A DNA stretch of 64,000 nucleotides from Candidatus Latescibacterota bacterium (GTDB lineage: Bacteria; Latescibacterota; UBA2968; UBA8231). Under the pieces are notes generated by a model. The model saw nothing but the letters and a program-made list of their open reading frames with translations, was not told the DNA's origin and made no database searches. The number at the start of each line of letters is the position of its first letter. Positions within the stretch are counted from its first letter, which is position 1. The DNA is taken from NCBI GenBank assembly GCA_965203175.1, contig OZ241867.1:4160001-4224000 (forward strand). The letters run 5' to 3'. The position numbers and the translations under genes were made by a program. This document shows positions 9,180 through 23,187 of the stretch, in pieces.

Positions 9180-9265
9180 ATGCAATCTGCGGCGATTACG
9201 AATAGATCTAAAGCAGGGCTGCACCACGACTTAGCTTACTGTTGTGTGATTAGCAGGAGAAGTAT

Positions 9266-9772
9266 ATGGCTCTAATCGAGAATCTGGAACATGAAGGCTG
9301 GGAAGAATTTCTTCGGGATAGTTTCCGGTATGCACTCGAGGTCTTGAAGAATGATCGCTTTAGACCTGTCGGTAGTTCTGTGGACGATCTAAAAAGTTGG
9401 CTTACTGCGGGTGGAGTCGCCCGAGTCCGCACACATCTCAACAAGCAGATGGAAATGCGCCGTTTTCCCTCATCCCGAAAATCGGCAGTCAACGACTGCA
9501 TTGAGCAGTTGGTGCGAGAGAACCGGGGTGCGCTTCTGGACTTGATGGCCGATGGTATTGTCCCTACTACAAGGCAGGAGCAGTTCGAGATCTACGGCCT
9601 GCCAGAACAGGACTTCCAAGATATTCTCAGCCGTATAGTAGCAGGTGAACGCCCCTTTGAAGAATGGATGCATGCACATGGACATTCTGACGAAGAGATA
9701 GAGGAGATCTATAGGATGGTTGACCAATGGTTGATGCAGAAGGGGATCATTCCCCAGAGGTCAGGAGAGTAA
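9266..9772 (+). CDS. Hypothetical acidic helical protein (168 aa)
   Basis: AGGAG RBS and ATG, protein-like composition; no recognised motif. Confidence 0.7.
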   Translation: MALIENLEHEGWEEFLRDSFRYALEVLKNDRFRPVGSSVDDLKSWLTAGGVARVRTHLNKQMEMRRFPSSRKSAVNDCIEQLVRENRGALLDLMADGIVPTTRQEQFEIYGLPEQDFQDILSRIVAGERPFEEWMHAHGHSDEEIEEIYRMVDQWLMQKGIIPQRSGE

Positions 9773-9958
9773 AATTTGGTGTATGATCTGTGTGAGTTGG
9801 TCTAAAACAGGCTTTGGGCTTGTGAGAACACCCATGTGCCTCTGCTTTCCCATACTGACCTTCGAACCTACGGAACCCTGATCGACTAGGAGACCGGAAT
9901 ATGGATGCGCTGCTCTCGTGTCAGGACTTCGTTGGGTAGATCCTAGTTCACGCTATCC

Positions 9959-11545
9959 TTATTCCTCGGTCGTGATGTCCCTCGGCTTTGCTAGGTCTCG
10001 GGCGAGGCTTTCACAGAGGCTGATCGCAGACAGGCAAAACGTAGCTGCGATTGGCACGGACACGATACTCCCCTCTCTGTGCTGTCCGAAGTTACCGACC
10101 GAGTGGAGGTGGTCCACGAGTAAGCACGTTTGCTTCGTTACAAATCTTGAGACGGGGTCGTGGTCCTCTGTCCCTGTGATGAGACGCAGTATGCCGCACT
10201 GCGGCCCGCGTTTCCTAGGGAGCCGATCCCCTTCATCGAACTTTACCCCCACGAACTTCCAGTTATGTGGCATAGACCTGTTTGCTGGGAGTTCGGCTTC
10301 CCAGATTAGATCCAGCGCACGTTCAGCGATGCTTCGGGCCCAGTTTACAGATTGGGTTGGCTCGGGGAGCAGGTCCCGGATTGCCTTCTCAATATCCCCG
10401 AGAAGCCTTGAATCCGCCCCGGTGATCTGAGCGAGACGGAGTTCGAGGAGGCTTTGAATGTTGCTCTCGAAGCGCTCCGCATCGTCGAATAGCCGCCGCA
10501 GGTTCTCCACCTCGCCCGCTTGCTGCTGCGCATACTGGTCCATCAAGCGACATGACGACCGGAGCTTGTTGCCGGACGGACAGGCAAATCCTTGTAGTTC
10601 GAGATCGCGCCTCCGCTGGTCCGGCACTTCGGAGAGTGGCACCTCGCCGTTGGCGAGTTCGGCCAGATTGGACCGAAGTTCGATAGGGCAGTTATCCCAT
10701 AGGGCTGCGAGCAAATCGCGTTTTTCTTTGGCCGTCTCCTTTGCGATCGCGTCCACGTGCGATTTGGAGAGCGATGTGCCTTGGGGTGCTCCGACGAGGA
10801 GCCGCTCTGCCAGACTAGCTGCCAGAATCGGAACGCCGCCGGTCCAATTGGCAATCTCCTTGAGAGCAGAACTATCTAACGTGACGTCATGCAGTTTGAA
10901 GGGATTGAGGAAACCGCTCCAGTCATGGTCCTTGAAGCAACCGACCTCCAACGGGGAGTCGTAGAAAATCTCCCAGAAGTCTGATGTCCGAGACTCCTCG
11001 GTCTTGCAAATCTCCCGGAGTCTTCGTCGGCTTCCAGTCACAAGGCGGAGGCTGGCCTTCTGGCCGAGGTCGCGCATTTCGTCCCAAAGGTTTCTTGTTA
11101 TGCCGCTTCCGGCGAGAACGTGGTCGAACCCGTCGAGTACTGCGAGGAGGCGAAGCCCCTTGTGCTCCATATCGTCGAAGACGAGCTGAAGAAGATCGCG
11201 TAGCCCTTCCTCTTCGAGCTCCAAATACTCGGCAAGCTCAGGCTGCACCGACTGGAGGGTATCTTTGATTCGTTCCGCGAAACGCTGGCGGAACTCTTCA
11301 TCCGTCATGGGAGTGCCATGTCGGAAATCCCAGTACAAGGAGGTAACGTAATGATCTCCTGCGTCCTTAAAGTGAGAAGCAAGGTGGTTCAGGAGCACCG
11401 ACTTTCCGAACAACGGAGGACCTACGACGCACATGTGATCCGGCGTTGGCTTAGTCAGGTGGCGACATAGCTCTACAAAAAGCCGCTCGCGGCCGAGCAT
11501 CGGCGGGATTCCTACACCGAGGACTTGGTAGGGATTGTCGCTCAT
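9959..11545 (-). CDS. P-loop ATPase (STAND/AAA-like) with putative HEPN/DUF4145-like C-terminal domain
   Basis: NPY..LG..PMLGRE, Walker A GPPLFGKS, Walker B variant LLAVLDGFD, TGGVP; C-terminal ARSIAERAL...HLHSVGNFGQH; ATGA overlap with upstream gene. Confidence 0.7.
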   Translation of the reverse strand: MSDNPYQVLGVGIPPMLGRERLFVELCRHLTKPTPDHMCVVGPPLFGKSVLLNHLASHFKDAGDHYVTSLYWDFRHGTPMTDEEFRQRFAERIKDTLQSVQPELAEYLELEEEGLRDLLQLVFDDMEHKGLRLLAVLDGFDHVLAGSGITRNLWDEMRDLGQKASLRLVTGSRRRLREICKTEESRTSDFWEIFYDSPLEVGCFKDHDWSGFLNPFKLHDVTLDSSALKEIANWTGGVPILAASLAERLLVGAPQGTSLSKSHVDAIAKETAKEKRDLLAALWDNCPIELRSNLAELANGEVPLSEVPDQRRRDLELQGFACPSGNKLRSSCRLMDQYAQQQAGEVENLRRLFDDAERFESNIQSLLELRLAQITGADSRLLGDIEKAIRDLLPEPTQSVNWARSIAERALDLIWEAELPANRSMPHNWKFVGVKFDEGDRLPRKRGPQCGILRLITGTEDHDPVSRFVTKQTCLLVDHLHSVGNFGQHREGSIVSVPIAATFCLSAISLCESLARDLAKPRDITTEE

Positions 11546-14500
11546 TGTTCATCCCCCAGTGTCGTGGAGTTGTAATTATTTCTATGGCTAGCTCCATAGC
11601 CACTGCCGTCTCCCCGGCCCCGCCCATCGCCGAGCCCGTACCCGTACCCACTGCCGTCTCCCTGCCCCCGGCCGTCGTACCCACCACTTATCTCTTCACT
11701 TTCGCGGACAGCTTGTTGGCGCTGATCCTCGAAGTCGATGTTGCGTCGTATCCAAGCGGCCATCAGAGGAACTGCGAGCATATATGCTGAGCCTCGTGCT
11801 GTCTCTTGGAGTTCAAGGAGTTCGAGCTCACGGAGAAACTCTAGATCGTCTCCTAAGCGGTCTTCTTGAGGGAGAGCAATGCCGTACTCCTCGAGCTTCG
11901 TCTCCAGCAAACTCAGTGTGATGGGATCCGGCTCTCCCTCTAGCTGCTGGCACAATGCTAGGATAAAACGTCTACGCTCTGTTTCAGCGTAACCCCACAG
12001 CGTGCGGAAGTGTTCGTTATCCTTCACCATCTCTTGAGCTGTCGTGTTTACCGTCCCTACCGTCACTGTTCGCTCACCCGAACGAGCGGCGTGATCGAAA
12101 ATCCGGTTGCACAAGGACTGGATCAGGAAGGGTTGTTGTGAACACAGTTCGACTACGCGATTCCTCGCCTCGGGCACGTACGTGAACCGCTCCATGACCG
12201 GCTGTGTCACGAGGAGGCGGGCATCCTCCAGTGGAAGTTCGCGTACGGAGACTGGGTGGCCGAACCCGAAGAGCGTTGACCAATACTCCTTCCGCAGTCG
12301 CGTGAGCCGATATGAGCCGGTGAGTATAGCTGACATGTCCGAGTAAGTGTGGAGCAGGTAGCGGATGTTCTCCGGGACCTGTGAGCTTGTGATCTTGGCG
12401 TCGATCCCTTCTTGGAGTTTGTCGAACTCATCGAGCATGAGTAGGAGGCGTCGCGGACTGGCAGCCTCTAGGACAGACTGTATATAAAGTTCGAAGATCT
12501 CGAAGGGTCGCGCTCCAGAGAACGCTGTTGAGAGAGCTTTCGCAAACGTGACCTTGAATGGCTTATCCGGGTCAGGGGAATTCATGTCTGGGAGCCACAC
12601 TCGAAGCCCTGCGTCATGTGTCGCCCAGCCGATGTCGCGCGCCATAAGTCTGAAGACCTCGTTGGTGGGCAAACCGGCCTTGCTTTCGTGGCCTTCGCCA
12701 CCTTGTAGGGAGCAGTACACGACAATCCAGCCCGGAAGCACGTTGGGAGCCTGCAGGCGCTTGAGAATTGAGGTCTTGCCTGTTCTGCGGTTGCCTTCTA
12801 GAAAGATGACGTTGGCTTGGTGGCTGGTAGAGAGCTGTCGCTGAATCGTGTCGATGATGTCTTGGCGTCCGAAGAACATCTCCTCACGATCAATTGGGCT
12901 TCCGACGATGTATGGGCTGGTGCCGAGCTCAGCGAGGTGGACGGCCTCTCGCGTGGAACGAATCTCTACCGCAAGTGGCAGTTCACCAGATACAGGCTGT
13001 CCGTCAAGGCGGTCGGCTTGCCATCGAAGCTCGAACTGGAATGGCCTGGTCTCTGTACGCGCTGGGATCTTCGCCGTAAAACTGAGCATCTCGTCCTCAG
13101 CGAGGTAGCCGATATGGGTCGAGCCGACCGGGGGTGATGTGGAGACCGAGACGTTGCGCAGCGCTAGAGGCGACAGGTTTTTCACGCGGATCTGGATTTC
13201 GTTCTCCGTCCCCGCTACGACCGCGCTCGGTTCAATACTCGGATCCAATTCGATGTCTTCTAGGAGGGAGTCCAACTCGGCCCGAACGAGCTGGGAAATC
13301 CTTCTGGTGACATCTATCGCAGAGGCGAATGCCGGCAGCAGCGTCTCTTTGACAGGAAGCCCCGAGTGGAATCCCACACCGGACTTCCATCCTGCCAAAT
13401 AGGAATCTCCTCGTCTTCTGATCGTCGAATAGACCTCCTTAAGGCGGTGCTGTGCGCTGTCGAGGAGCGCCATGCGCCCCGACCCGGGTGGTACGTGATT
13501 CAGGCCCTGTAGCATCTTCACGGCCTCCGCGAGATCCTTCAGCCACGAGGCGAATTGAGGGGAAGTGCGCGATTGAGCGACCTGATTTTGGAGTTCCCAG
13601 ACCGAATGAGCAACCCGTTCCAAAAGTGCCACGCGGCTGGCCGTCTGGTCCGATCTCCGCAACTCTTGCACATCGGGAGATCCCATCAACCATGAGACAA
13701 CCAACTCCTCGCTGTCGCCCGTCAGGATACGTACGAGGGCGGCAAAGGGATCGTCTCCCTCCTCATCCATCTGCTTTACAATATGCTCTTGGATCGGAAC
13801 TTGCGGCACCAAGACGGGAAGATGTCGTAGCGTTCGAATGGAGAGGTGCTGGATAGTTGCCCCACGTACGTGACCACGGATCCATTCTTGGTAGGCATCA
13901 GAGGCGAGGAGACTCTTCAAAAACTGTGAAGAGATCTGTTCCTTGGGGCGTATGACGACCAAGCTCTTGGCGGCCACTGAGTCCACGGTACCTGTCGGCT
14001 CGGACACGATCGCCAGTTTTCCGATGGTGCCAGAGATGGTGAGCAGGATATCGCCGGCACGTAGCCGGTGCTTCGGATGCACTCGTTCGCTACTTCCATT
14101 GGTCAGGAAGATGGATGGAGGTTGTATACCAGTGCGGTTCACATCCGCTACGCGTACGAGGCCAGCGAACACCGATGGATCGTCTCCGTGCGGCGTGGTT
14201 ACTGACTTCCTGTACGAAACACCGGTAAAAATCTCCGCTACCTTGTTGAGTGGCTGTATGGAGACTTCGACATCCGCCTCTTGCAGAGCTTGAAGAAAGC
14301 GAGACAGAGCTTCCTCACCTGTTCGCTTAGCAACCAACTCCCAGTCCCTAGTCTTGAGTTCCTTGACCGGGGTTTCCCAGAGGCTGCCGTTTGGTGTGCC
14401 GCTCCTGAATTCGTCAGCGATACTGCGCACCGCTTCGCCTGCCTTCTCACGGCTGAACCCGTCTTCTGGTCGGATAGAGGGCCACTCCTCTACCTGCATG

Positions 14501-15642
14501 AACCGAACGGCCTGTGCCGCTTTCTCTCGATGGAAGAGAACCAGACTCGTCTTGATCCCTGTGTACGGATGGAAAGCCCCAGCCGGCAGCGACACTACTC
14601 CCTCCACACAGTAGTCGGTGAGAAGTTCCTTGCGGACCTTCCGGTCGGGACCGGGCCGGAAGAGAGTACTATCCGGAAGGGCGATGACGGCGCGACCACC
14701 CCGACGAAGAGAAGCCATCACGTGCTGAAGAAATAGCGTCTCGGATTTAGCTTTCGATTCCTGAAACTGGGCTGCGACCTCCGGGCGTGCGCGCGCCCCC
14801 CAAGGAGGGACGGCCAGAATGCAGTCGAATCCCTCTGAGGACCGATTTTTGGCCAAGGGGCGTTCTAAGGCGTCACCGAGTTCGAGTCTGGGTTGTTCAA
14901 TGCCTGCCAGGACGACTCTCGCAAGCCCGATGCTGTACCCGTACGGGCTGATCTCTACCCCGAACACGCTGTGTTGTTGGACTTCTGTCCAGACTTTTGG
15001 GGGCATCTGCATTGCTTTCTCGCGGAGTTTGCTCGCTACCGTGGAGAGCAGACCCCCGGTGCCGAAGCAGGGGTCGTAGATGCGTTCGCCTGGACTAGGA
15101 TCGAGAAGATCAGTCATCAGCTCGACCACAGGTCGGGGGGTTGTGTGCTCTCTTAGGGTTTTGGCCTTCGCAGTGGTTTTTTCCACTAGGGCTCCAAGGG
15201 CATCCCCGGCCACCTGCCTACCAGTGACAGTCTCCAGATTAAAAGCTTGGGCCCACTGGACGAGCGCCTCGATCATCTCAGGAGATTCGTGGACGAGTAC
15301 CTCAACGACGGGTGCAAGCCGTTGCAAGAACAGGCCGAGGTTGGTATTGGGCGCATTGCGCAGCGCGGGCAATACCTCTCCCCGAAGGACGTCTACAAGC
15401 TCCGCACCGCGAAGATCGCACCATGAAGACCAATGCTGATCCCGAGATAGCACAGGCAGGTAGTCGTGACCGTCGAAGGCGGCTACGGCTTCCTGCTCGG
15501 TATCTAGGTGGTCAGCCCAACGAAGCAGGAATAGGGTGGCTGCAAAGGGAGCGATGACCTCCTCAAGCGGATGGTCGCTACGGACCTTGTCGAGGCGGGT
15601 CCATAGATCGGACATGTGAGATGTAAGTTCGGGATGCTTCAT
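11542..15642 (-). CDS. HsdM-like MTase + HsdS-like TRD + P-loop ATPase fusion with Gly-rich tail (1366 aa)
   Basis: DPCFGTGG (SAM binding), ILAVPPWG at motif IV, LRAGDILLTISGTIGK...RGATIQHLS (TRD), SPYIVGSPI..FFGR, EGNRRTGKTS, LLLMLDEFD, GDGSGYG tail. Confidence 0.85.
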   Translation of the reverse strand: MKHPELTSHMSDLWTRLDKVRSDHPLEEVIAPFAATLFLLRWADHLDTEQEAVAAFDGHDYLPVLSRDQHWSSWCDLRGAELVDVLRGEVLPALRNAPNTNLGLFLQRLAPVVEVLVHESPEMIEALVQWAQAFNLETVTGRQVAGDALGALVEKTTAKAKTLREHTTPRPVVELMTDLLDPSPGERIYDPCFGTGGLLSTVASKLREKAMQMPPKVWTEVQQHSVFGVEISPYGYSIGLARVVLAGIEQPRLELGDALERPLAKNRSSEGFDCILAVPPWGARARPEVAAQFQESKAKSETLFLQHVMASLRRGGRAVIALPDSTLFRPGPDRKVRKELLTDYCVEGVVSLPAGAFHPYTGIKTSLVLFHREKAAQAVRFMQVEEWPSIRPEDGFSREKAGEAVRSIADEFRSGTPNGSLWETPVKELKTRDWELVAKRTGEEALSRFLQALQEADVEVSIQPLNKVAEIFTGVSYRKSVTTPHGDDPSVFAGLVRVADVNRTGIQPPSIFLTNGSSERVHPKHRLRAGDILLTISGTIGKLAIVSEPTGTVDSVAAKSLVVIRPKEQISSQFLKSLLASDAYQEWIRGHVRGATIQHLSIRTLRHLPVLVPQVPIQEHIVKQMDEEGDDPFAALVRILTGDSEELVVSWLMGSPDVQELRRSDQTASRVALLERVAHSVWELQNQVAQSRTSPQFASWLKDLAEAVKMLQGLNHVPPGSGRMALLDSAQHRLKEVYSTIRRRGDSYLAGWKSGVGFHSGLPVKETLLPAFASAIDVTRRISQLVRAELDSLLEDIELDPSIEPSAVVAGTENEIQIRVKNLSPLALRNVSVSTSPPVGSTHIGYLAEDEMLSFTAKIPARTETRPFQFELRWQADRLDGQPVSGELPLAVEIRSTREAVHLAELGTSPYIVGSPIDREEMFFGRQDIIDTIQRQLSTSHQANVIFLEGNRRTGKTSILKRLQAPNVLPGWIVVYCSLQGGEGHESKAGLPTNEVFRLMARDIGWATHDAGLRVWLPDMNSPDPDKPFKVTFAKALSTAFSGARPFEIFELYIQSVLEAASPRRLLLMLDEFDKLQEGIDAKITSSQVPENIRYLLHTYSDMSAILTGSYRLTRLRKEYWSTLFGFGHPVSVRELPLEDARLLVTQPVMERFTYVPEARNRVVELCSQQPFLIQSLCNRIFDHAARSGERTVTVGTVNTTAQEMVKDNEHFRTLWGYAETERRRFILALCQQLEGEPDPITLSLLETKLEEYGIALPQEDRLGDDLEFLRELELLELQETARGSAYMLAVPLMAAWIRRNIDFEDQRQQAVRESEEISGGYDGRGQGDGSGYGYGLGDGRGRGDGSGYGASHRNNYNSTTLGDEQ

Positions 15643-15665
15643 GTGCCGACTGTCTCCATTGAGAT

Positions 15666-16904
15666 CTAGCGCTCACCTGCAAATGCCTTGCGAAGAACAG
15701 CTTGCATCAACGCGTTCGGGTCAGCAGCAGAGGTGTTCGCATCAATCTGGTTTCTAACCTTGCGAGTGGGGGTGAACCGCAATAGTCGGCAAAGCTCGTT
15801 GACTCGCTTAAGACGCTCTTGGATACGGCTAACGATTCGTCGCTGTTGCTCAAGAGGAGGCAGGGGAATTTTATGCTGTTCGACAAAGGTTGCTGGTACA
15901 CGTTGCTGACCAGCAGAGCCGCGAAAATGCCGACGGGCTTCCTCGCGGAAGGAGCGTTGTCGAACAAAATACCAGAGCCACTGCGGAAGGACCGCTGGAC
16001 CGGGGCGGAGTACGTGGAACTCCGTCGAGCCAAAGCCAAGGCCATTGACAAGGCTCTGAGCAATTGCCGACTTCCCGTTCTGCATGCAGGGCGTGATTTT
16101 TGCAAATATCACGTCTCCCTGCAGAAAGGGGGTGAAGCCCTTTCGAACGTCGCCAAGTGGTTTCACCTCTGGAGAGGCAATGGTACCGGTCTCTTCGTCC
16201 ACCGCAGCCATCGGAACAAACGTGACTTCTATATCTTCATCAAGCGACCGAAGACGACTGTCGCGTCGAGGATTTACTTGGGCTATATCACCTATAGGAA
16301 CGACAGGGATGTTGGCGTCTTGGGTGAGTTCCAGAATAGAATCCGAGAAGACTGCGCTCTCTAGTGCAGTTGCTTCCACCAGAGATCCCCGACGGAGCAT
16401 CTGAATTTCTCTCACACGTTCGAATGCCTCCTGAATCTGCCCAACGATTCGTCGTTGCTCGGATAAAGGCGGTACCGGAAGCTCTATGCGCTCCAGCTTC
16501 TTTTTTGTGATATGCCGAAGTCCGACACCTCCGTGAGCAAGTGAGATCATCTCGTCTAGTCGGGAGTTCATGGCATGAACAAAAAATTCCTTGAGCATCT
16601 TTGTCTTATCGACAAGAACCTTAAAAATATGCTGGTTTAGGATCGCTTGGCCTCGGTTCCACACAAAGCACCCGAACGATGTGCCAGGCGTGCCTGACCA
16701 AGAAAGAAGCACATCGCCATCTTCAACGAGGTATTTACTGCGGATTTCCCCGTCATAGTAGTTAAACGGCTTGGTTTCGTCGTTGAGATTCTGAATGCGA
16801 ACGATTGGGAGGCCATGTTGGGTCCAATCTGAGGGTTTGAATGCCCGGCCGTTGATTAGCTGACATAGCGACCCAATGGGCTCCGATTGCCAGTGTTGCT
16901 TCAT
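15666..16904 (-). CDS. hsdS: Type I RM specificity subunit
   Basis: Two TRDs, each followed by a conserved P(V/L)PPLxEQxRIV region; ends VLRKAFAGE. Confidence 0.92.
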   Translation of the reverse strand: MKQHWQSEPIGSLCQLINGRAFKPSDWTQHGLPIVRIQNLNDETKPFNYYDGEIRSKYLVEDGDVLLSWSGTPGTSFGCFVWNRGQAILNQHIFKVLVDKTKMLKEFFVHAMNSRLDEMISLAHGGVGLRHITKKKLERIELPVPPLSEQRRIVGQIQEAFERVREIQMLRRGSLVEATALESAVFSDSILELTQDANIPVVPIGDIAQVNPRRDSRLRSLDEDIEVTFVPMAAVDEETGTIASPEVKPLGDVRKGFTPFLQGDVIFAKITPCMQNGKSAIAQSLVNGLGFGSTEFHVLRPGPAVLPQWLWYFVRQRSFREEARRHFRGSAGQQRVPATFVEQHKIPLPPLEQQRRIVSRIQERLKRVNELCRLLRFTPTRKVRNQIDANTSAADPNALMQAVLRKAFAGER

Positions 16905-18436
16905 TCGGGAGCCTCCAGCAGTTCTTCCAGCTCTTCAAGAAGCTCAATGATTCGTTCCTCCTTTGTCTTAATAGACTGGACCAGATCCAGCGCGGGTTTG
17001 TGTTCAAAATCCTCTTCCTTGTTGGGATTCTGAGCGGAGAGGTCCCAGTCCCGCTCGGCGATCTCATCGATAGAGACCGTCCATGAGTTTTCTGCTTTCT
17101 CCCGCTTCTCCTACTTGGCGAGGAAGTCTGGGATCTGGCTTCCTTGGATCGGTCGTCTCGTCGCCTTGAGGTCGAAGCCATCGTTGGTGAGTTCGTAGTA
17201 CCAGACATCCTTGGTACCAAGGCTATCTTTGCGGCGATTGAAGAAGAGGACATTCGTCTTCACACCCGTATAAGGGAGGAAGCATCCGGCTGGCAGCGAG
17301 AGGATCGTATGGATATCGAACTCGCGGAGGAGTCGTTCACGGACTTTGACGTCAGGGCCACCTCGGAACAGGACTCCCTCGGGAATTATTACTGCGGCCC
17401 GTCCGCCCGTGGCCAAGTTTGTCATGATATGCTGTAGGAAAAGGATCTCGGTGGAGCCCGATTGGATCGTGAAATTGGTCTGGAGCTCCCGAGCCATCTT
17501 CCCACCGTAGGGTGGATTCGAGAGAATGACATCGTAGCGGTCATTCTCCGGGACGTTAGTGGAGTGCAGCTCTAGTGTGTTCCCAAGTTCTATATTCGCT
17601 TCCTCAATGCTATGCAGCAGCATATTCATCGTGCCGAGTAAGTAGGCCAGGGGCCTGAGTTCGATGCCGTAGAAGGTGTTTTGTTGGAGTTGGTCGAGAT
17701 GCGAGCCACTGAGGGTACCCTCCATATTCCGGATGTACTCAGCCGACTCGGCAAGGAAGCCAGCCGTGCCGAAACAGGGATCGTAGATGCGGTCTCCGAT
17801 CTTGGGACGAACCACGTCGATCATGGCTCGGATGATGTGGCGCTGCGTGTAGAATTCGCCAGCGTAGCCGGCAGAGTCGGCAGCCACATCCTTCAGTAGC
17901 CCCTCGTAGAGTTCCGAAAGCACGATAACATCGGTCGCATCGCCAAAGTGGAGACGATTGACTTGCTGAGTGACCCGAGCGAAGCTCGCGCCACGACGTG
18001 AATGGTTGCGAACCGTCGAGAAGATTCGGCGAAATCGCTCGGCGATTGGATCGTTCGCGAATTGCCGAGTATCCTCAGTTTCTCCGAAAGCTCTGAGGTG
18101 AGGCCAGAGTTTTCCATTGACGAATTCCAGCATCTGATCGGGTTGGTTGGACAGCGATGACCAACTCGACCAGCGATACTCGCCGTCGAGTCTTCGCCGA
18201 TAGGGCGAGCCGTCAAAGGCAGCCTCTTCTTCGCGGCGGCTTTCCATCTCGTCAAATGCCTTGAGGAAGAACAGCCAGGCGAGTTGCTCTACGTAGTCGC
18301 GTGGGTCCACACCGTCGTCTCGAAGCTGATCGCAGGCACTCTTGATAGCTTGTTGCACCTCTTGGCGACGATGCTCTGTTTCTCCGTTGGATGCCTGCTT
18401 ATTTCGTTCTTGGCCTTGCTTGTGGGCCATATGCAT
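16901..18436 (-). pseudogene. hsdM: Type I RM methyltransferase with in-frame TAG at 17111-17113 (truncated or interrupted)
   Basis: GEFYTQR, DPCFGTAG, NPPY; the frame continues past TAG as EKREKAENSWTVSIDEIAERDWDLSAQNPN...LEELEELLEAPE to a TGA overlapping the hsdS ATG. Confidence 0.8.
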
Positions 18437-18440
18437 TCTC

Positions 18441-20729
18441 CTATGCCACCATCGGCACGTAAAGGTGCTGCTTTACTGCCTCCAAGTCCGCCTTTAGCTT
18501 GTCGGCTCCTCCGTAGCAGTTCAACAATCTGCTGAAGCTACCGAACCGTTCCACGAACTGGGGCGCGCTGTAGGTGCTGCCCCTCTCTAGATCGTCGATG
18601 CCGTAGAGCGAGTAGTGATCGAGGCCCGTCTCCCAGAAGCGCGTTTTGAAGCGATCTTCATCAGGCAAGTTGTGCTCGCCGAGTTGAGTAAGTAGCCAGT
18701 TCTCGTCGTCGTCCCATAAACGGACAACGCGGTCATGGCGGGAGGGGATTCTCACCAGTTCGTAACCCACCTTGCCGAGAATGTCCACATCATCCGATCC
18801 GTCGAGTTCGAAGTAGTGCCTGAACGCGGCCACATGGATGTCTCTGTCTGTGAGTTCGGACCGTAGATCGTGGCGCGTACTCCTGTCGATCCAGATACTT
18901 AGTAGCTGGTCAATATTGGTTGGCGCGATGCTCCGAATGACTTCACGTGACTGCTCTTGGTACTCGTCGAAGGGGATTTTGCGGCCATCGGCCAAGCAGA
19001 CATATCGCTCAGTCGAGGAGATATAGACTGAGATACCCTGTCCGACTGGTTTCTCCTTAGTGCTCTCAGTTGGCTTCTTCAGCGGTGATGACTTGCGGCT
19101 CTTCTGAAGGTTGGCTGGATGTCCATCGAACTCGGCATCTTCGAGTAAGTTCGCTCCAGCGTAGTCGAAGATGGTGAAGTAGCGCTTATTGATGTCGTCG
19201 CAGAGGCGGGTTCCCCGGCCCTTCATCTGCTTGTAGAGGATAGCACTCTTCACGGGTCGAGCAAAAACGATGTTCTTGACATCGGGTGCGTCGAAGCCTG
19301 TGGTCAGGAGATCAACCGTGACCGCCACTCGGGGCTTGGTACGACCGACCTCTCCGAAGTTACGCTCAAGCTGATGTGAGTTGCGTTCAGATCTTGTAAT
19401 CCGCGCGGCGTAGTCGTTGTCCCCCGAGAGACGTCGCAACTCGGCCGCGAAGAACGCCGCATGCGTATCATCAACGCAGAAGACGATGGTCTTATCGTCC
19501 CGAATGTCGTATTTCCCAAGGGTTGACCAGAGATCCTCCGCGATGCTCCTCGTACGATCGGGTAGCCTGATGTCGCGCTCGAAGTTACTTGTAGTGTAAT
19601 GCTTGCCGTCAGGGCCGATGTAGCCGTCTTCATCTAGGTTCGAAATACGCTCTTCGAGTAGATAGGGAACGAGGTAGCCATCTTCGATGGCCTGTCTCAG
19701 AGAGTAAGTATAGATAGGCTCGCCGAAGTACTCATAGGTGTCACGTCGCACCTCCTCCTCGGTGAGTTCGCGGCCGCTCCGATCCAGTTCACGAGGGGTG
19801 GCGGTGAGACCTAACTGGTAAGCTGACTTGAAATGCTCAAGGACACCGAACCAATCGCCGAAGCCGGAACGGTGACACTCGTCCACCACGACCAAGTCGA
19901 AGTAATCCGAGTCGAAGTACTCGTAAAGCTTCTTTCCGTCCAGTTCCTCGTCGAGGTTCTGGTAGTTGGCGAAGAAGATTTTCCCGACGAGATGCTCGCC
20001 TCGGCTGACCCGTTCCTTATCGATGACAACTCGCTCGTCCGAGGTGAAGCCAGCAAAGGCCCGATAGGCTTGGTCTTTGAGGCTATTACGGTCAGTAAGG
20101 AAGAGGAGACGGTTGTTCCGCAAGACATCCCCACGCATCAACTTCCACGCAAGTTGGAAAACGGTAAAGGTCTTGCCTGTCCCCGTGGCCATTAGGAGGA
20201 GCGCCCGCTTTTCTCCTTGGCTAAAGCGATAGAGGGTTTCAAAGATGGCCATCTCCTGATAGGGACGCACCTTCTTCTGGGTAATCTGGTCCTCGTACCA
20301 AGGTGCCTTGAACACAGAGTGCCACTCTGTCCAGACGATGTTACGCCCGAGGCGGGAGAGGATGTCCCCTGGTGTGGGCGGAGTGTCGAACGTTTCGAAT
20401 TCACCGGTCTTGTTGTCGGTCAGGATGTACTCGCGCCCATTTGAGGCAATCGAAAATCGAAGACCTAGGCGGTCGGCGTACCGGGAGCCCTGCTGCATAC
20501 CGTCCGTTGCTGCCCTCGCCTCGGCCTTGGCCTCGAGGATGGCGAGCGGCATCTGCGAGAGACGCAGCACGTAGTCGGCGATGATCCTCTGAGAAGAGTC
20601 GTACATCGACTCGCCGGTTAGGTTGACTCGGCCGGGGCCGATGACGACTTCCCGATCCCACTCCCACCCGGCTTTCTTCAGGGCGGGCTCGATCAGTTCC
20701 CGGCATGTTCTGTCTTCGTTTCGGCTCAT
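18441..20729 (-). CDS. hsdR: Type I RM restriction subunit (EcoEI/EcoAI-like, compact)
   Basis: ADYVL...LEAK nuclease motif, MATGTGKT, DECHR, GLTATP, LLTTGFDAP, QMKGRGTR. Confidence 0.92.
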   Translation of the reverse strand: MSRNEDRTCRELIEPALKKAGWEWDREVVIGPGRVNLTGESMYDSSQRIIADYVLRLSQMPLAILEAKAEARAATDGMQQGSRYADRLGLRFSIASNGREYILTDNKTGEFETFDTPPTPGDILSRLGRNIVWTEWHSVFKAPWYEDQITQKKVRPYQEMAIFETLYRFSQGEKRALLLMATGTGKTFTVFQLAWKLMRGDVLRNNRLLFLTDRNSLKDQAYRAFAGFTSDERVVIDKERVSRGEHLVGKIFFANYQNLDEELDGKKLYEYFDSDYFDLVVVDECHRSGFGDWFGVLEHFKSAYQLGLTATPRELDRSGRELTEEEVRRDTYEYFGEPIYTYSLRQAIEDGYLVPYLLEERISNLDEDGYIGPDGKHYTTSNFERDIRLPDRTRSIAEDLWSTLGKYDIRDDKTIVFCVDDTHAAFFAAELRRLSGDNDYAARITRSERNSHQLERNFGEVGRTKPRVAVTVDLLTTGFDAPDVKNIVFARPVKSAILYKQMKGRGTRLCDDINKRYFTIFDYAGANLLEDAEFDGHPANLQKSRKSSPLKKPTESTKEKPVGQGISVYISSTERYVCLADGRKIPFDEYQEQSREVIRSIAPTNIDQLLSIWIDRSTRHDLRSELTDRDIHVAAFRHYFELDGSDDVDILGKVGYELVRIPSRHDRVVRLWDDDENWLLTQLGEHNLPDEDRFKTRFWETGLDHYSLYGIDDLERGSTYSAPQFVERFGSFSRLLNCYGGADKLKADLEAVKQHLYVPMVA

Positions 20730-20779
20730 AATCTCATTAGCATGGTGTCTAGCATTGCCCAGCGGTTCCTGCTATACAA

Positions 20780-20795
20780 TGCAAAATGCGTGCCA
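20780..20795 (-). promoter_or_regulatory. sigma54 (-24/-12) promoter for the hsdR operon
   Basis: Minus strand reads TGGCAC-GCATT-TTGCA, matching TGGCAC-N5-TTGCW; 50 nt upstream of the hsdR ATG and directly after the activator stop codon. Confidence 0.85.
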
Positions 20796-22301
20796 TTAGC
20801 GATTCACCCTGTACTTGCTTAACCAGTTCGTGAACGTCTGGTAACTCGGAAGGCCCACCAAGTGGGCTGCCTGTGTCTTGTTCCCCTGGGTCTCATCAAG
20901 CGCACGTGTCAGATAGTGCTGTGCAACTGAAGTCAACAAATCCGGAAGGCTGAGGCCATTACCGAGGGGACGGTCGAGAATCTTGGATTCTTCTTGGCCT
21001 ATTGCCGGAAGCAACGCCTCCCGTACGTCTTCGCTGCGTATGGTGGACCCTGAAGTCCAGATTGCAGCCCTATGAAGCGTATTCAGTAGCTCTCGGACAT
21101 TACCTGGCCATGGGTGGGAGATGAGAATATTTCTTGCGCCCGGAGAAAGTTTCTTATGCTCGTAGCCCGGTTCCTGTGCGAGGTCGTCATTGACCTTCTT
21201 GAGTAGTCGATCTATGAGAAGGCTCAAGTCTCCTTTGCGATCTCTCAAAGGGGGTAGCTGTAGACTCGCCACCGCAAGGCGATAGAAGAGATCCTCCCTG
21301 AAGCGGCCCGCAGCGATTTCCTCGGTGAGGGTTCGGTTCGTCGCTGCGATGATTCGGACATCTACCTTGAGTGGGGTTGTCGAGCCGACACGTATGACCT
21401 CTCCCTCCTGAAGGATGCGAAGGAGTTTTACTTGGGCGGGAGGGGAGAGCTCGCCAACTTCGTCAAGGAAGAGTGTTCCACCATCTGCATCCTCAAAGTA
21501 TCCAGTCTTCCTCCTATCTGCGCCCGTGAAGGCACCTTTCTCGTGGCCAAAGAGCTCGGATTCAACGAGTTCAGCCGGTATTGCACCGCAGTTGACCGCC
21601 TTGAAAGGTTGGGCCCGCCGAGGGCTAGCTCTATGGATCGCCCGAGCCAGCAACTCCTTTCCTGTGCCAGACTCGCCTTCTATGAGAACCGACACGGATC
21701 GTGGCGCAACGCGACGTGCCTTGGCGACTAGCCGAGCCATGACTCGGCTGCGGTGGATGATGTCAGCGAACTCTGGTGCCTCTGGAGGTAGCCCAGCGGT
21801 TAGCTGCTCAAGGCGCTCGTCTGGAACTCGGAGTAGGTCGGGTATGAATTCGGCCGAAATGTCGAAGGGCACGGAGGCCGTCTGAACTCCGTACTCCTGG
21901 GAAGACTCGATCAACTTAGCAGGAAAACGCGTCTTGGCTAGAATGATCCAGACAGCCGCCATGGCCGGAGTACCTGGACTCAGATGAAAGATCAGCTCAG
22001 AATCTTTACCGTGATGCTCAAGCGCTTCGGTCACGACCCGAACCGCAGCCTCGTAGATCTGACCGAAGTCGGTAGGACTAGACAATGGCTCGTGACGGAC
22101 GGTCACCGCTGACTCGGTCTGGGGCCGGAGCCAATTAAGGAACGGTGTTACCACTTCCTTAGGGTAGTCACTGACCAGCACGGCAGTATCATAGGAACCC
22201 GTGCCGAGAGCTTGAGCGATCGGCCCTTTCCCTACGCGTTGCTCCTCCTTCGGTGCCTGAAGGTCGGCTTTGCCGATCCAGCTAATCAGGAGTCTATTCA
22301 T
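20796..22301 (-). CDS. sigma54-dependent transcriptional activator (bEBP) with RtcR/CARF-like N-terminal domain
   Basis: [49 protein letters not shown], Fis-type HTH; N-terminal LISWIG...HLSPGTPAM with no receiver domain. Confidence 0.88.
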
Positions 22302-22309
22302 GGCTATAT

Positions 22310-22338
22310 AAACTACAAGACTATTTGTATAAACACAA
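22310..22338 (-). promoter_or_regulatory. Possible sigma70-type promoter of the activator (near-leaderless)
   Basis: TTGTGT-17 nt-TAGTTT, 8 nt before the ATG, no RBS. Confidence 0.35.
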
Positions 22339-22467
22339 GATTTCTTACGTTTAGCATCGCAACAATAATCTGCATCGTCAGTTCTTGCTCTTCCTTGATG
22401 CTGACCCTTCTTGCGCGGTCAAGATTCTCTGCACTTTTTCTGCCACCACAACCCTGCGAGAACGCCC

Positions 22468-23187
22468 ATGCGCCTCTGCGACTTTACGATACTGACCTTC
22501 GACACCTATGGAACCCTTATCGACTGGGAGACGGGCATCTGGGATGCGCTGCAACCGCTCTGCGCGCGTCTAGCTGACCCGCCGACTCGCGAGGCAGCCC
22601 TCATCGCCTTCGCGCAGGTGGAATCCGCTTGCCAAGCGGCCAATCCCGACCTCCTCTACGCTGACCTCCTAGCAGCTACCCACCGTACGCTGGCCCGGAA
22701 CTGGGGCAGCGAACCCGACGAGGCCGAAAGCATCCGCTTCGGTCAGTCGGTCGGGGACTGGCCGGCCTTTGCCGACGCGGCCGAATCGCTCGCCTATTTG
22801 AAGCGCCACCACCGACTGATCACCCTCACCAATTGCGACCGCGCCAGCTACCGGGGCAGCGCCGCCCGCCTCGGCGATCCTTGGGATGCGATCTTTACCG
22901 CCGAGGAGATCGGCTCGTACAAACCGTCGCTGGCCAACTTCGAATTTCTGCTCGCCCGGGTGGCCGCGGACTTCGGCGGCGATCCCGGAAGCATCCTACA
23001 CGTCGCGCAGAGCCTCTTCCACGATCACGTGCCGGCCAAGGCAGTCGGCCTGACGACGGCATGGATTGACCGGCGGGCCGGGCGTGGCGGCGGCGCGACG
23101 GCACCTCCACCGGAGGCTGTAGAACCGGACTTCCGTTTCAAAAACATGGCGGAACTGGTCGTCCAACACCGCGCCGAACGGGCCTGA
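22468..23187 (+). CDS. Haloacid dehalogenase type II-like HAD hydrolase
   Basis: LTFDTYGTLIDWE, LTNCD, SYKP, LHVAQSLFHDHVPA. Confidence 0.88.
   Translation: MRLCDFTILTFDTYGTLIDWETGIWDALQPLCARLADPPTREAALIAFAQVESACQAANPDLLYADLLAATHRTLARNWGSEPDEAESIRFGQSVGDWPAFADAAESLAYLKRHHRLITLTNCDRASYRGSAARLGDPWDAIFTAEEIGSYKPSLANFEFLLARVAADFGGDPGSILHVAQSLFHDHVPAKAVGLTTAWIDRRAGRGGGATAPPPEAVEPDFRFKNMAELVVQHRAERA

Follow-up and report, generated by a model that had tools for sequence, protein, structure and literature searches.

A stretch of 64,000 nucleotides (nt) from Candidatus Latescibacterota bacterium (GenBank assembly GCA_965203175.1, contig OZ241867.1, positions 4,160,001 to 4,224,000), to which we refer as the window, carries six neighbouring genes on its minus strand. 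They encode, in this order, a CARF-domain activator of sigma54-dependent transcription, the subunits HsdR, HsdM and HsdS of a restriction-modification (RM) system of Type I, a fusion protein of 1366 amino acids (aa) and an ATPase of 528 aa. Comparison with related loci identified the last two genes, the fusion and its partner ATPase, as the core of this arrangement; the pair usually stands under the activator, while hsdRMS is a frequent but exchangeable companion. The arrangement recurs across phyla, far more than expected by chance, and no model of PADLOC, NCBIfam, Pfam or PHROGs names the pair. The best explanation for the whole is, in our opinion, a sigma54-dependent and signal-induced defence operon with a pair of ATPases as its switch, a reading to which we assign a probability of about 0.45.

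A first-pass annotation of the window had described the six genes as one defence unit, a sigma54-inducible RM operon extended by a pseudo-methyltransferase and an ATPase with a HEPN nuclease domain, and did not recognise it as any named system. The six minus-strand open reading frames (ORFs), their coordinates and overlaps as well as the domain calls were confirmed, and the sigma54 control, the pseudo-methyltransferase and the absence of a name also stood up to closer analysis. This likewise applies to the conserved linkage of the pair with activator and RM genes, which the annotation itself had put forward as a means of refutation. The idea of six genes as one unit had to be given up: hsdRMS is missing in 20 loci with an activator, and is replaced by another gene in a sister genome.

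Conservation of the gene pair and of its promoter

A scan of species-representative genomes yielded 100 relatives, from which 80 loci were kept. In 79 of these 80 loci the ATPase gene directly follows the fusion gene, and the contig of the remaining locus ends 125 nt past the fusion. A chance adjacency of the two genes is thereby ruled out. The loci originate from Planctomycetota, Acidobacteriota, Latescibacterota, Gemmatimonadota, Binatia, Cyanobacteria, Proteobacteria, Spirochaetia, Chloroflexota, Verrucomicrobiota, Armatimonadota and Bacteroidota, and the pair is thus carried in more than ten phyla, by soil, marine and sponge-associated bacteria and also on plasmids. Among the carriers are the cultured and non-pathogenic bacteria Variovorax paradoxus NBRC 15149, Planctopirus hydrillae JC280, Cupriavidus lacunae S23, Marinobacterium nitratireducens and Calothrix anomala FACHB-343. 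In a metagenome protein collection the family of the partner ATPase comprises at least 647 members and that of the C-terminal part of the fusion at least 1030. Family members that carry a name at all are annotated as 'hypothetical', 'N-6 DNA methylase' or 'type I restriction enzyme M protein'.

For 16 of the 80 loci the upstream DNA was too short to judge the gene content in front of the pair. Among the 64 loci with at least ~8 kb of upstream DNA, the activator and/or hsdRM lies directly upstream of the pair in 57. Both are present in 22 loci, the activator without hsdRM in 20 (no hsdR within ~8 kb upstream), hsdRM without a recognised activator in 15, and neither of them in 7. Four of the 15 loci that lack a recognised activator (L061, L066, L084 and L090) exhibit a divergent or cut sigma54-AAA match just upstream of hsdR. 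Due to these counts we regard the pair, usually under the activator, as the unit, and hsdRMS as frequent but exchangeable. Two loci (L024 and L039) retain short hsdR remnants in front of the fusion gene, which suggests that the short form consisting of activator and pair may arise by deletion. The neighbours of the pair in loci without RM genes or activator upstream include GmrSD, a PLD nuclease together with a superfamily 1 (SF1) helicase, and RmuC. Four cyanobacterial loci (L022, L027, L028 and L053) contain the pair without the CARF-sigma54 activator, two of them (L027 and L053) together with hsdRM. Cyanobacteria are not known to possess sigma54, and the missing activator in these loci fits this absence.

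The exchangeability of hsdRMS is also evident in a genome of the same genus (G011), in which the island occupies the same chromosomal site, with flanks that are 90-98% identical to those in the window. The locus (L007, positions 9229-17977) comprises the activator, a PDC-M09A-like gene, an ORF of 153 aa, the fusion and the ATPase, but no hsdRMS. The PDC-M09A-like gene (10808-11791, E-value 8.4e-30) and the 153-aa ORF (11796-12257), the latter without a match in Pfam, PADLOC or PHROGs, occupy the slot between activator and fusion. The identity to the window copies amounts to ~70-74% for the fusion and 54-62% for the ATPase.

The activator (501 aa, positions 20796-22301) shows the RtcR-like organisation of CARF, sigma54-type AAA+ and helix-turn-helix (HTH) domains according to Pfam, PADLOC and NCBIfam. 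Pfam matches were obtained for Sigma54_activat (2.6e-71), HTH_8 and, weakly, RtcR (0.0017). The protein is a full-length match to the RtcR_PspF2 class of PADLOC (PDLC01995, CARF_AAA_HTH; 4.3e-202), with aa 3-499 aligned to profile positions 2-480 of 481. An assignment to RtcR proper was rejected, since the score against the NCBIfam RtcR equivalog (335.8 bits) stays below the cut-off of 650 and the genes downstream are hsdR and its followers rather than rtcAB.

Directly after the stop codon of the activator gene the minus strand contains a sigma54 (-24/-12) promoter, TGGCACGCATTTTGC (20781-20795), which ends 52 nt upstream of the hsdR start codon ATG. It is the sole exact match to TGGCAC-N5-TTGC in the window. 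With one mismatch allowed, the motif occurs five times versus 5.06 expected, and because this equals expectation the case for the promoter rests on its position and conservation and not on its count. A sigma54 motif with at most one mismatch was found within 330 nt after the activator stop codon in 43 of 45 related loci, versus 2.7% of 2000 random windows of 360 nt from the same loci. In the short-form loci the promoter is located in front of the fusion gene. The sigma factor itself is encoded in the genome by rpoN. Scans of positions 9200-22500 for sigma70 promoters and terminators revealed no more sites than in shuffled sequences.

The two ATPases and the methylase-like head

The fusion gene (11542-15642) codes for a protein with Pfam matches to N6_Mtase (aa 144-385), Methylase_S (524-626) and AAA_16 (923-1078). 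Its N-terminal module, aa 28-444 (14311-15561), is HsdM-like and covers positions 25-454 of the 491 positions of the PADLOC profile MTase_I (PDLC03021; 3.6e-67), the same model that also fits the HsdM of the operon best (7.1e-127). Motif I, DPCFGTGG, with the FxGxG for binding of S-adenosylmethionine (SAM), is kept in the window copy and in 65-67 of 67 aligned fusions. In motif IV, by contrast, VPPW replaces NPPY/W, so that the catalytic Asn is lost and the window fusion deviates from the (D/N/S)PP(Y/F/W) pattern of active N6-adenine methyltransferases. On the DNA level, the motif I stretches (IYDPCFGT) of the fusion and of hsdM (15059-15090 and 17766-17797) are 88% identical over 32 nt. This similarity goes back either to a shared ancestry of the two methylase genes or to a conversion between them.

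The methylase module is followed by a single HsdS-type target-recognition domain (TRD; aa 450-615, 13798-14295). It was detected by Pfam Methylase_S (5.9e-08), and Foldseek aligned its model with the S subunit of PacII (7vs4_C) and with Esub1 (8vsr) at values of ~1e-9. Next comes a helical region with two long helices and then an eight-strand beta-sandwich (aa 616-895, 12958-13797), as seen in the AlphaFold2 model m0e81a5f0c89f of fusion residues 450-1366, which has a mean predicted local distance difference test (pLDDT) value of 87.8; in model numbering, to which 449 has to be added, the helices span 166-346 and the strands 350-446. The residues 905-1320 (11683-12930) form a P-loop ATPase with lid and winged helix that is similar to ORC/Cdc6 and STAND proteins (Foldseek to PABY2304, 2qen: 6.6e-11, TMt 0.75; also to ORC/Cdc6). 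Its Walker A (GNRRTGKTS) and Walker B (LLMLDEFD) motifs are invariant in 67 of 67 fusions. The ATPase is the part with the highest mean column conservation (0.68). The methylase core reaches 0.52 and the TRD 0.49, and the lowest conservation was seen in the helical linker (0.36) and in the N-terminal part. The protein ends with a disordered, non-conserved tail rich in Gly, Asp and Tyr (aa 1321-1366, 11545-11682; pLDDT <50, column conservation 0.06). This tail is coded by two direct repeats of 36 nt (D1; 11594-11677), which are 83% identical and lie 48 nt apart.

The loss of the catalytic residue is not a peculiarity of the window copy, since motif IV lacks Asn or Asp in 42 of the 65 fusions tabulated together with their partners. 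In the pairs that keep Asn/Asp, the motif of the partner ATPase carries Arg in 11 cases (NPPW with RNxxxH, the canonical HEPN signature) and Gly in 12, whereas the 42 degenerate fusions are combined with partners without Arg (41 Gly, the rest Ala or a gap) and never with an Arg-type partner; these counts derive from related loci and do not represent independent events. The state of motif IV also varies with the company of the pair. Fusions with Asn/Asp are located next to hsdRM in 20 of 21 loci with enough upstream DNA, and a degenerate motif IV was found in 21 of 22 alignable loci without hsdRM. Because of the latter, the stand-alone pair appears to have no methylase activity with which self DNA could be marked, and this argues against an RM-like logic of the pair and for a role as reader or sensor.

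The partner protein (9959-11545) matches AAA_22/AAA_16 in its N-terminal part. Residues 1-350 (10496-11545) comprise the ATPase with lid and winged helix, with GPPLFGKS as Walker A and VLDGFD as Walker B motif, and this part is paralogous to the ATPase of the fusion: hhalign aligned the two modules over 271 columns with a probability of 98.3% (E 1.8e-14). The relationship is visible on the profile level only, as a BLASTP comparison of fusion and partner gave nothing significant. Both ATPases match the folds of PABY2304, ORC/Cdc6 and NLR proteins, and both combine a P-loop NTPase with a helical lid and a winged helix, as is typical for the STAND and ORC-Cdc6 clade. The remaining residues of the partner (351-528, 9962-10495) build an all-helical C-domain (model pLDDT 90.9), for which the alignments revealed the invariant residues R370, E418, W429 and H489. 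The last of these closes the penultimate helix, within the motif GNFGQH in the window copy.

Structure prediction supports a binding of the two ATPases to each other. The predicted complex of fusion residues 905-1325 with the partner reached an ipSAE of 0.81, compared to 0.01 for the best of three controls; the mark applied is attained by 58 of 80 solved complexes, compared to 2 of 110 mismatched pairs. At least 92% of the contacts are common to the runs, and the pLDDT of the partner is at least 81. The predicted interface involves the invariant SPY motif of the fusion, located ahead of the P-loop, and the conserved residues 25-37 of the partner.

Restriction genes and the surrounding island

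The three RM genes lie between activator and fusion. The hsdR gene (18441-20729) encodes a restriction subunit of 762 aa with the nuclease N-domain, the superfamily 2 (SF2) motor and the EcoEI_R_C domain of Type IB enzymes (EcoAI/FtnUII family; NCBIfam NF046051, 3.6e-153; Pfam ResIII, HSDR_N and EcoEI_R_C). The hsdS gene (15666-16904) encodes a specificity subunit of 412 aa with two TRDs (two stretches of Pfam Methylase_S; PADLOC Specificity_I, 1.5e-89). Its start overlaps the end of hsdM in an ATGA of 4 nt (16901-16904), and a second overlap of this type joins the fusion and ATPase genes (11542-11545). Within the operon, genes either overlap or are 4-66 nt apart.

The hsdM gene (16901-18436) contains both motif I (DPCFGTAG) and an intact motif IV (NPPYGG), but is interrupted by an in-frame TAG at codon 442 of 511 (17111-17113). 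After this stop the final 69 codons stay in frame up to the overlap with hsdS. At this position the four closest homologues shown have TGG (Trp), as do 31 aligned high-scoring segment pairs. The base that creates the TAG is also present in contigs of two public sequencing runs (X1 and X2), which belong to one study and of which X1 is possibly the source sample, while close relatives from run X3, a sponge metagenome, and from X22, an RNA library, carry TGG. As far as contigs can show, the TAG is therefore a real nonsense variant and not an assembly slip. The operon thus lacks the intact HsdM of a Type I RM system, and its RM copy has probably lost restriction as well as modification. Contigs of the metatranscriptome library X22, derived from a relative that is ~95% alike, cover pieces of all six genes (window 9900-22400). 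They may reflect in-situ transcription; since carry-over of DNA is possible, we did not count them as expression.

The operon is the cargo of a horizontally moving island of 12.5 kb, which has a low GC content, is bracketed by a direct repeat and has housekeeping genes as neighbours. The GC fraction is 0.53-0.58 over 8-22 kb of the window versus 0.61-0.63 around it. The right copy of the repeat (22455-22552, plus strand), which delimits the island, constitutes the 5' end of the HAD-hydrolase gene in the flank, and the left copy (9821-9913, plus strand) is a degenerate version of the same 5' end. The copies are imperfect: a gapped local alignment contains 3 gaps, and 82 of its 93 positions agree (score 112 versus at most 27 in 200 shuffles). 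A gapless repeat search missed the flanking repeat, which was recovered by gapped alignment only. No tRNA gene was found in the window and no integrase among the ORFs of the island. The partner ATPase is encoded in 5 of the 41 related genomes searched, our genome included. In a further genome (G023, locus L010, positions 10991-11256), the partner ATPase gene is reduced to two short pieces (aa 32-92 and 144-179) beside an aldo-keto reductase gene; at this site, the same as in the window, the copy of the island has decayed. An ORF of 168 aa on the plus strand (9266-9772), convergent with the operon, has no match in Pfam, PADLOC or PHROGs. Since it is 98% identical in the sister genome (L007, 18148-18651), it is part of the flank and not of the island.

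Candidate defence function and its alternatives

PrrC with EcoprrI and PARIS are back-up abortive effectors that are coupled to or guard Type I restriction and combine an ATPase with a nuclease domain. Neither of our two proteins is a member of these groups, as Pfam and PADLOC gave no AAA_13 or AriA/PARIS match at E <=0.01 for either of them, and no anticodon nuclease or Toprim match; the ATPases described here are of the ORC/STAND type, and the module is located at the 3' end of the operon. Avs STAND NTPases and ATPases of the PABY2304/SSO1545 type differ from the pair, which consists of two paralogous subunits, has a methylase and TRD head and no repeat-type sensor. Membership in BREX-like systems or CoCoNuTs was rejected as well. 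The MADS system, an eight-gene set of mad1-8 (PMC13662399), is unrelated: the scores were 73.8-87.7 bits against MADS2 (cut-off 720) and 35-39 against MADS5 (cut-off 400), and the partner had no match.

The regulatory and decoy ideas that the operon suggests, and that the first-pass annotation had put forward, are already in print for other cargo. RtcR-like CARF-NtrC-HTH proteins were described as 'often associated with R-M systems', and either RNA carrying a 2',3'-cyclic phosphate or a phage nucleotide was proposed as the CARF signal for restriction (Makarova et al. 2014, PMC4012209). The activators in these passages share with ours the architecture, the 5' position in the operon and the dependence on sigma54. 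The passages concerned name only 'R-M systems' and contain no mention of the fusion and its partner ATPase, the cargo that stays constant in our loci. In the CoCoNuT superoperons, as outlined in passages of Bell et al. (2024, PMC11090510), an RtcR homologue is encoded at the 5' end, Type I RM and other defence genes lie in between and HEPN effectors at the end, and a feedback loop was proposed in which HEPN nucleases generate cyclic-phosphate RNA that is sensed by CARF. The terminal module in that description is of the McrBC type and contains coiled-coil nucleases, and none of its parts appeared in Pfam scans of our six proteins. For Ronin, a look-alike of HsdM/HsdS was reported to sense anti-restriction proteins, with methylase catalysis being dispensable and an attached effector killing the cell (Silas et al. 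2023, bioRxiv 10.1101/2023.04.06.535777). In the portions of that preprint which describe the system, Ronin has separate HsdM and HsdS proteins and the 61-aa membrane protein RonA, without ATPases, CARF activator or sigma54 promoter. Here, unlike in Ronin, the look-alike is fused to an ATPase, and a sensing of anti-restriction proteins is what we postulate. Membership in Ronin was rejected, as HsdR is present and no small membrane ORF fits into the tight gene spacing of the operon. Among the papers searched, none describes the fusion together with its ATPase partner; the neighbourhood may be listed in Makarova et al. (2020, NAR 48:8828) and in the supplement to Makarova et al. (2014).

Drawing on the analogy to RtcR (PMC11090510; PMC4012209), we propose that the RtcR-like activator reacts to a ligand connected with infection and turns on the -24/-12 promoter, which would lead to expression of the Type IB RM set and of a two-gene core able to work without RM. 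The two ATPases would form a nucleotide-controlled hetero-oligomer. With its SAM pocket kept and its catalytic Asn lost, the methylase-like head may serve as a reader and not as an enzyme, whose target could be DNA or a Type I-directed factor, e.g. DNA-mimic anti-restriction proteins. Recognition would then flip the ATPase switch and release the C-terminal effector of the partner, probably an RNase, the action of which would result in abortive infection or growth arrest. The genomic setting looks like defence, due to the PDC-M09A-like gene in the corresponding slot of the sister genome, the GmrSD, PLD, SF1 helicase and RmuC neighbours of other loci and the low-GC island with flanking repeats.

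Several observations have to be held against this proposal. The C-domain of the partner is HEPN-like by motif and helix order only, and the HEPN assignment of the first-pass annotation was not borne out by profile searches. Among 38 C-domains, Pfam gave just two matches, both at noise level, one to HEPN_Swt1 (E 0.11) and one to DUF4145 (E 0.16). DUF4145 (PF13643) is a family of the HEPN clan that often occurs in RM loci. Its domains from related genomes, aligned for 18 of 25 DUF4145 matches, have the same helix order as the C-domain, the same [G/R]-N-x3-H motif at the end of the penultimate helix and the same split into Gly and Arg forms (16 G-N-x3-H, 2 R-N-x3-H), but the profile similarity is not significant: the hhalign probability was 2%, or 11.8% with a deeper query of 177 rows, and a forced global alignment gave 0.7%, though the G-N-x3-H registers coincide. 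Further searches with the C-domain retrieved only ORC1 lid pieces at E >=0.02 from PDB sequence profiles and no usable match from the ESM Atlas. Foldseek and VIA-align matches to the model of the whole partner were all filled by the ATPase part, residues 1-350, and PHROGs had no match for the protein. When a profile of the C-domain was compared with 1.84 billion representatives, 453 proteins came up at E <=0.001; the 150 best of them were all members or fragments of the family itself and provided no bridge to a named one. Taken together, we still consider a HEPN-like nuclease domain somewhat better than an even bet. An active RNase in the window copy has to be rated lower, since GNFGQH carries Gly at the position of the canonical Arg and departs from the R-x4-6-H pattern of HEPN nucleases, which makes such an activity doubtful.

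The same caution applies to other parts of the proposal. The Walker B motif of the partner (DGFD) is devoid of the Glu, and the score of the predicted complex, for which the alignments were made here, may partly be a memory of ORC/Cdc6-type AAA+ heteromers in the structure bank. Because the RM part is broken in this genome, the six-gene operon is unable to work in the way the first-pass annotation had imagined. Finally, an Acinetobacter ursingii plasmid (NZ_MH220285.1, locus L117, 5798-13563) encodes an hsdR, 36% identical over its full length, that overlaps the start of a fusion gene with the motif HPPV, followed by the ATPase (GDFGQH). On this plasmid hsdM and hsdS are missing as separate genes, a gene with a WYL domain is located upstream, and no CARF activator was found within 12 kb upstream. 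The plasmid fits a role of the fusion in a restriction complex better than a role as decoy.

Such a role is the essence of the main rival, in which the fusion acts as M-S scaffold of a modification-independent, Type I-like machine that recruits HsdR, the ATPases, instead of the methylation status, gate translocation and cleavage, and the effector is HsdR acting on DNA instead of an RNase. Besides the plasmid, the almost complete coverage of the HsdM profile by the fusion and the neighbourhood of Asn/Asp-keeping fusions and hsdRM speak for it, and so does the striking conservation of the RM genes in the cassettes, with a median identity of 69% for HsdR and 68% for HsdM versus 37-50% for the pair. 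We nevertheless judge this scaffold function improbable, since the short-form loci dispense with hsdR, the hsdR remnants in two loci indicate that the pair persists after loss of the gene, and a restriction enzyme without self-marking would attack the host chromosome. Equally improbable is an extended version of our own proposal, a two-tier circuit in which RNA damage upon infection would first raise the level of the pair through the CARF activator. The dead methyltransferase half, fused to a STAND-like ATPase, would then serve as bait for any attack on Type I enzymes, be it by DNA-mimic anti-restriction proteins or by SAM depletion, and would switch on the paralogous ATPase, so that the DUF4145-like domain cuts RNA and could feed the CARF domain again. 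The motif series, in which a dead methylase never occurs together with an Arg-type motif, fits this circuit; if it were true, the series would record how an RM enzyme evolves into a decoy guard.

Two further readings appear to us less probable still. The dead methylase could be a sensor of small molecules which reports SAM depletion, caused e.g. by SAM-degrading enzymes of phages, or a SAM-derived signal to the ATPase switch. This would explain why motif I (DPCFG.G) is near-invariant despite the loss of the catalytic Asn in most fusions and why the methylase core is conserved like the TRD. However, the retention of TRD and long helices as well speaks for a macromolecular target, and an intact motif I may serve folding only. 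The pair could also have no part in immunity and either serve the island as a module for addiction or maintenance or regulate the neighbouring RM system, e.g. by restriction alleviation or as assembly factor. The mobility of the island with its direct repeats, its patchy presence in related genomes, the remnants at the same site in one of them and the frequent co-occurrence of the pair with hsdRMS are consistent with this. Against it stand the loci that contain the pair with the activator alone and the absence of any antitoxin-like partner, and the signal-dependent control by CARF and sigma54 as well as the GmrSD, PLD and PDC-M09A-like neighbours are in better accordance with defence.

A link between RtcR-like CARF activators and restriction has been in print since 2014. 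For one large class of these activators the constant cargo is now identified: it consists of an ATPase to which a methylase-like reader is fused, and of its sister ATPase, which bears a putative nuclease domain. The pair is widespread and experimentally approachable, as cultured carriers exist. If the operon is indeed a defence system, it would represent a new architecture that joins restriction enzymes, STAND-type switches and transcriptional induction, and the natural series from active to dead methylases could show how a decoy evolves.

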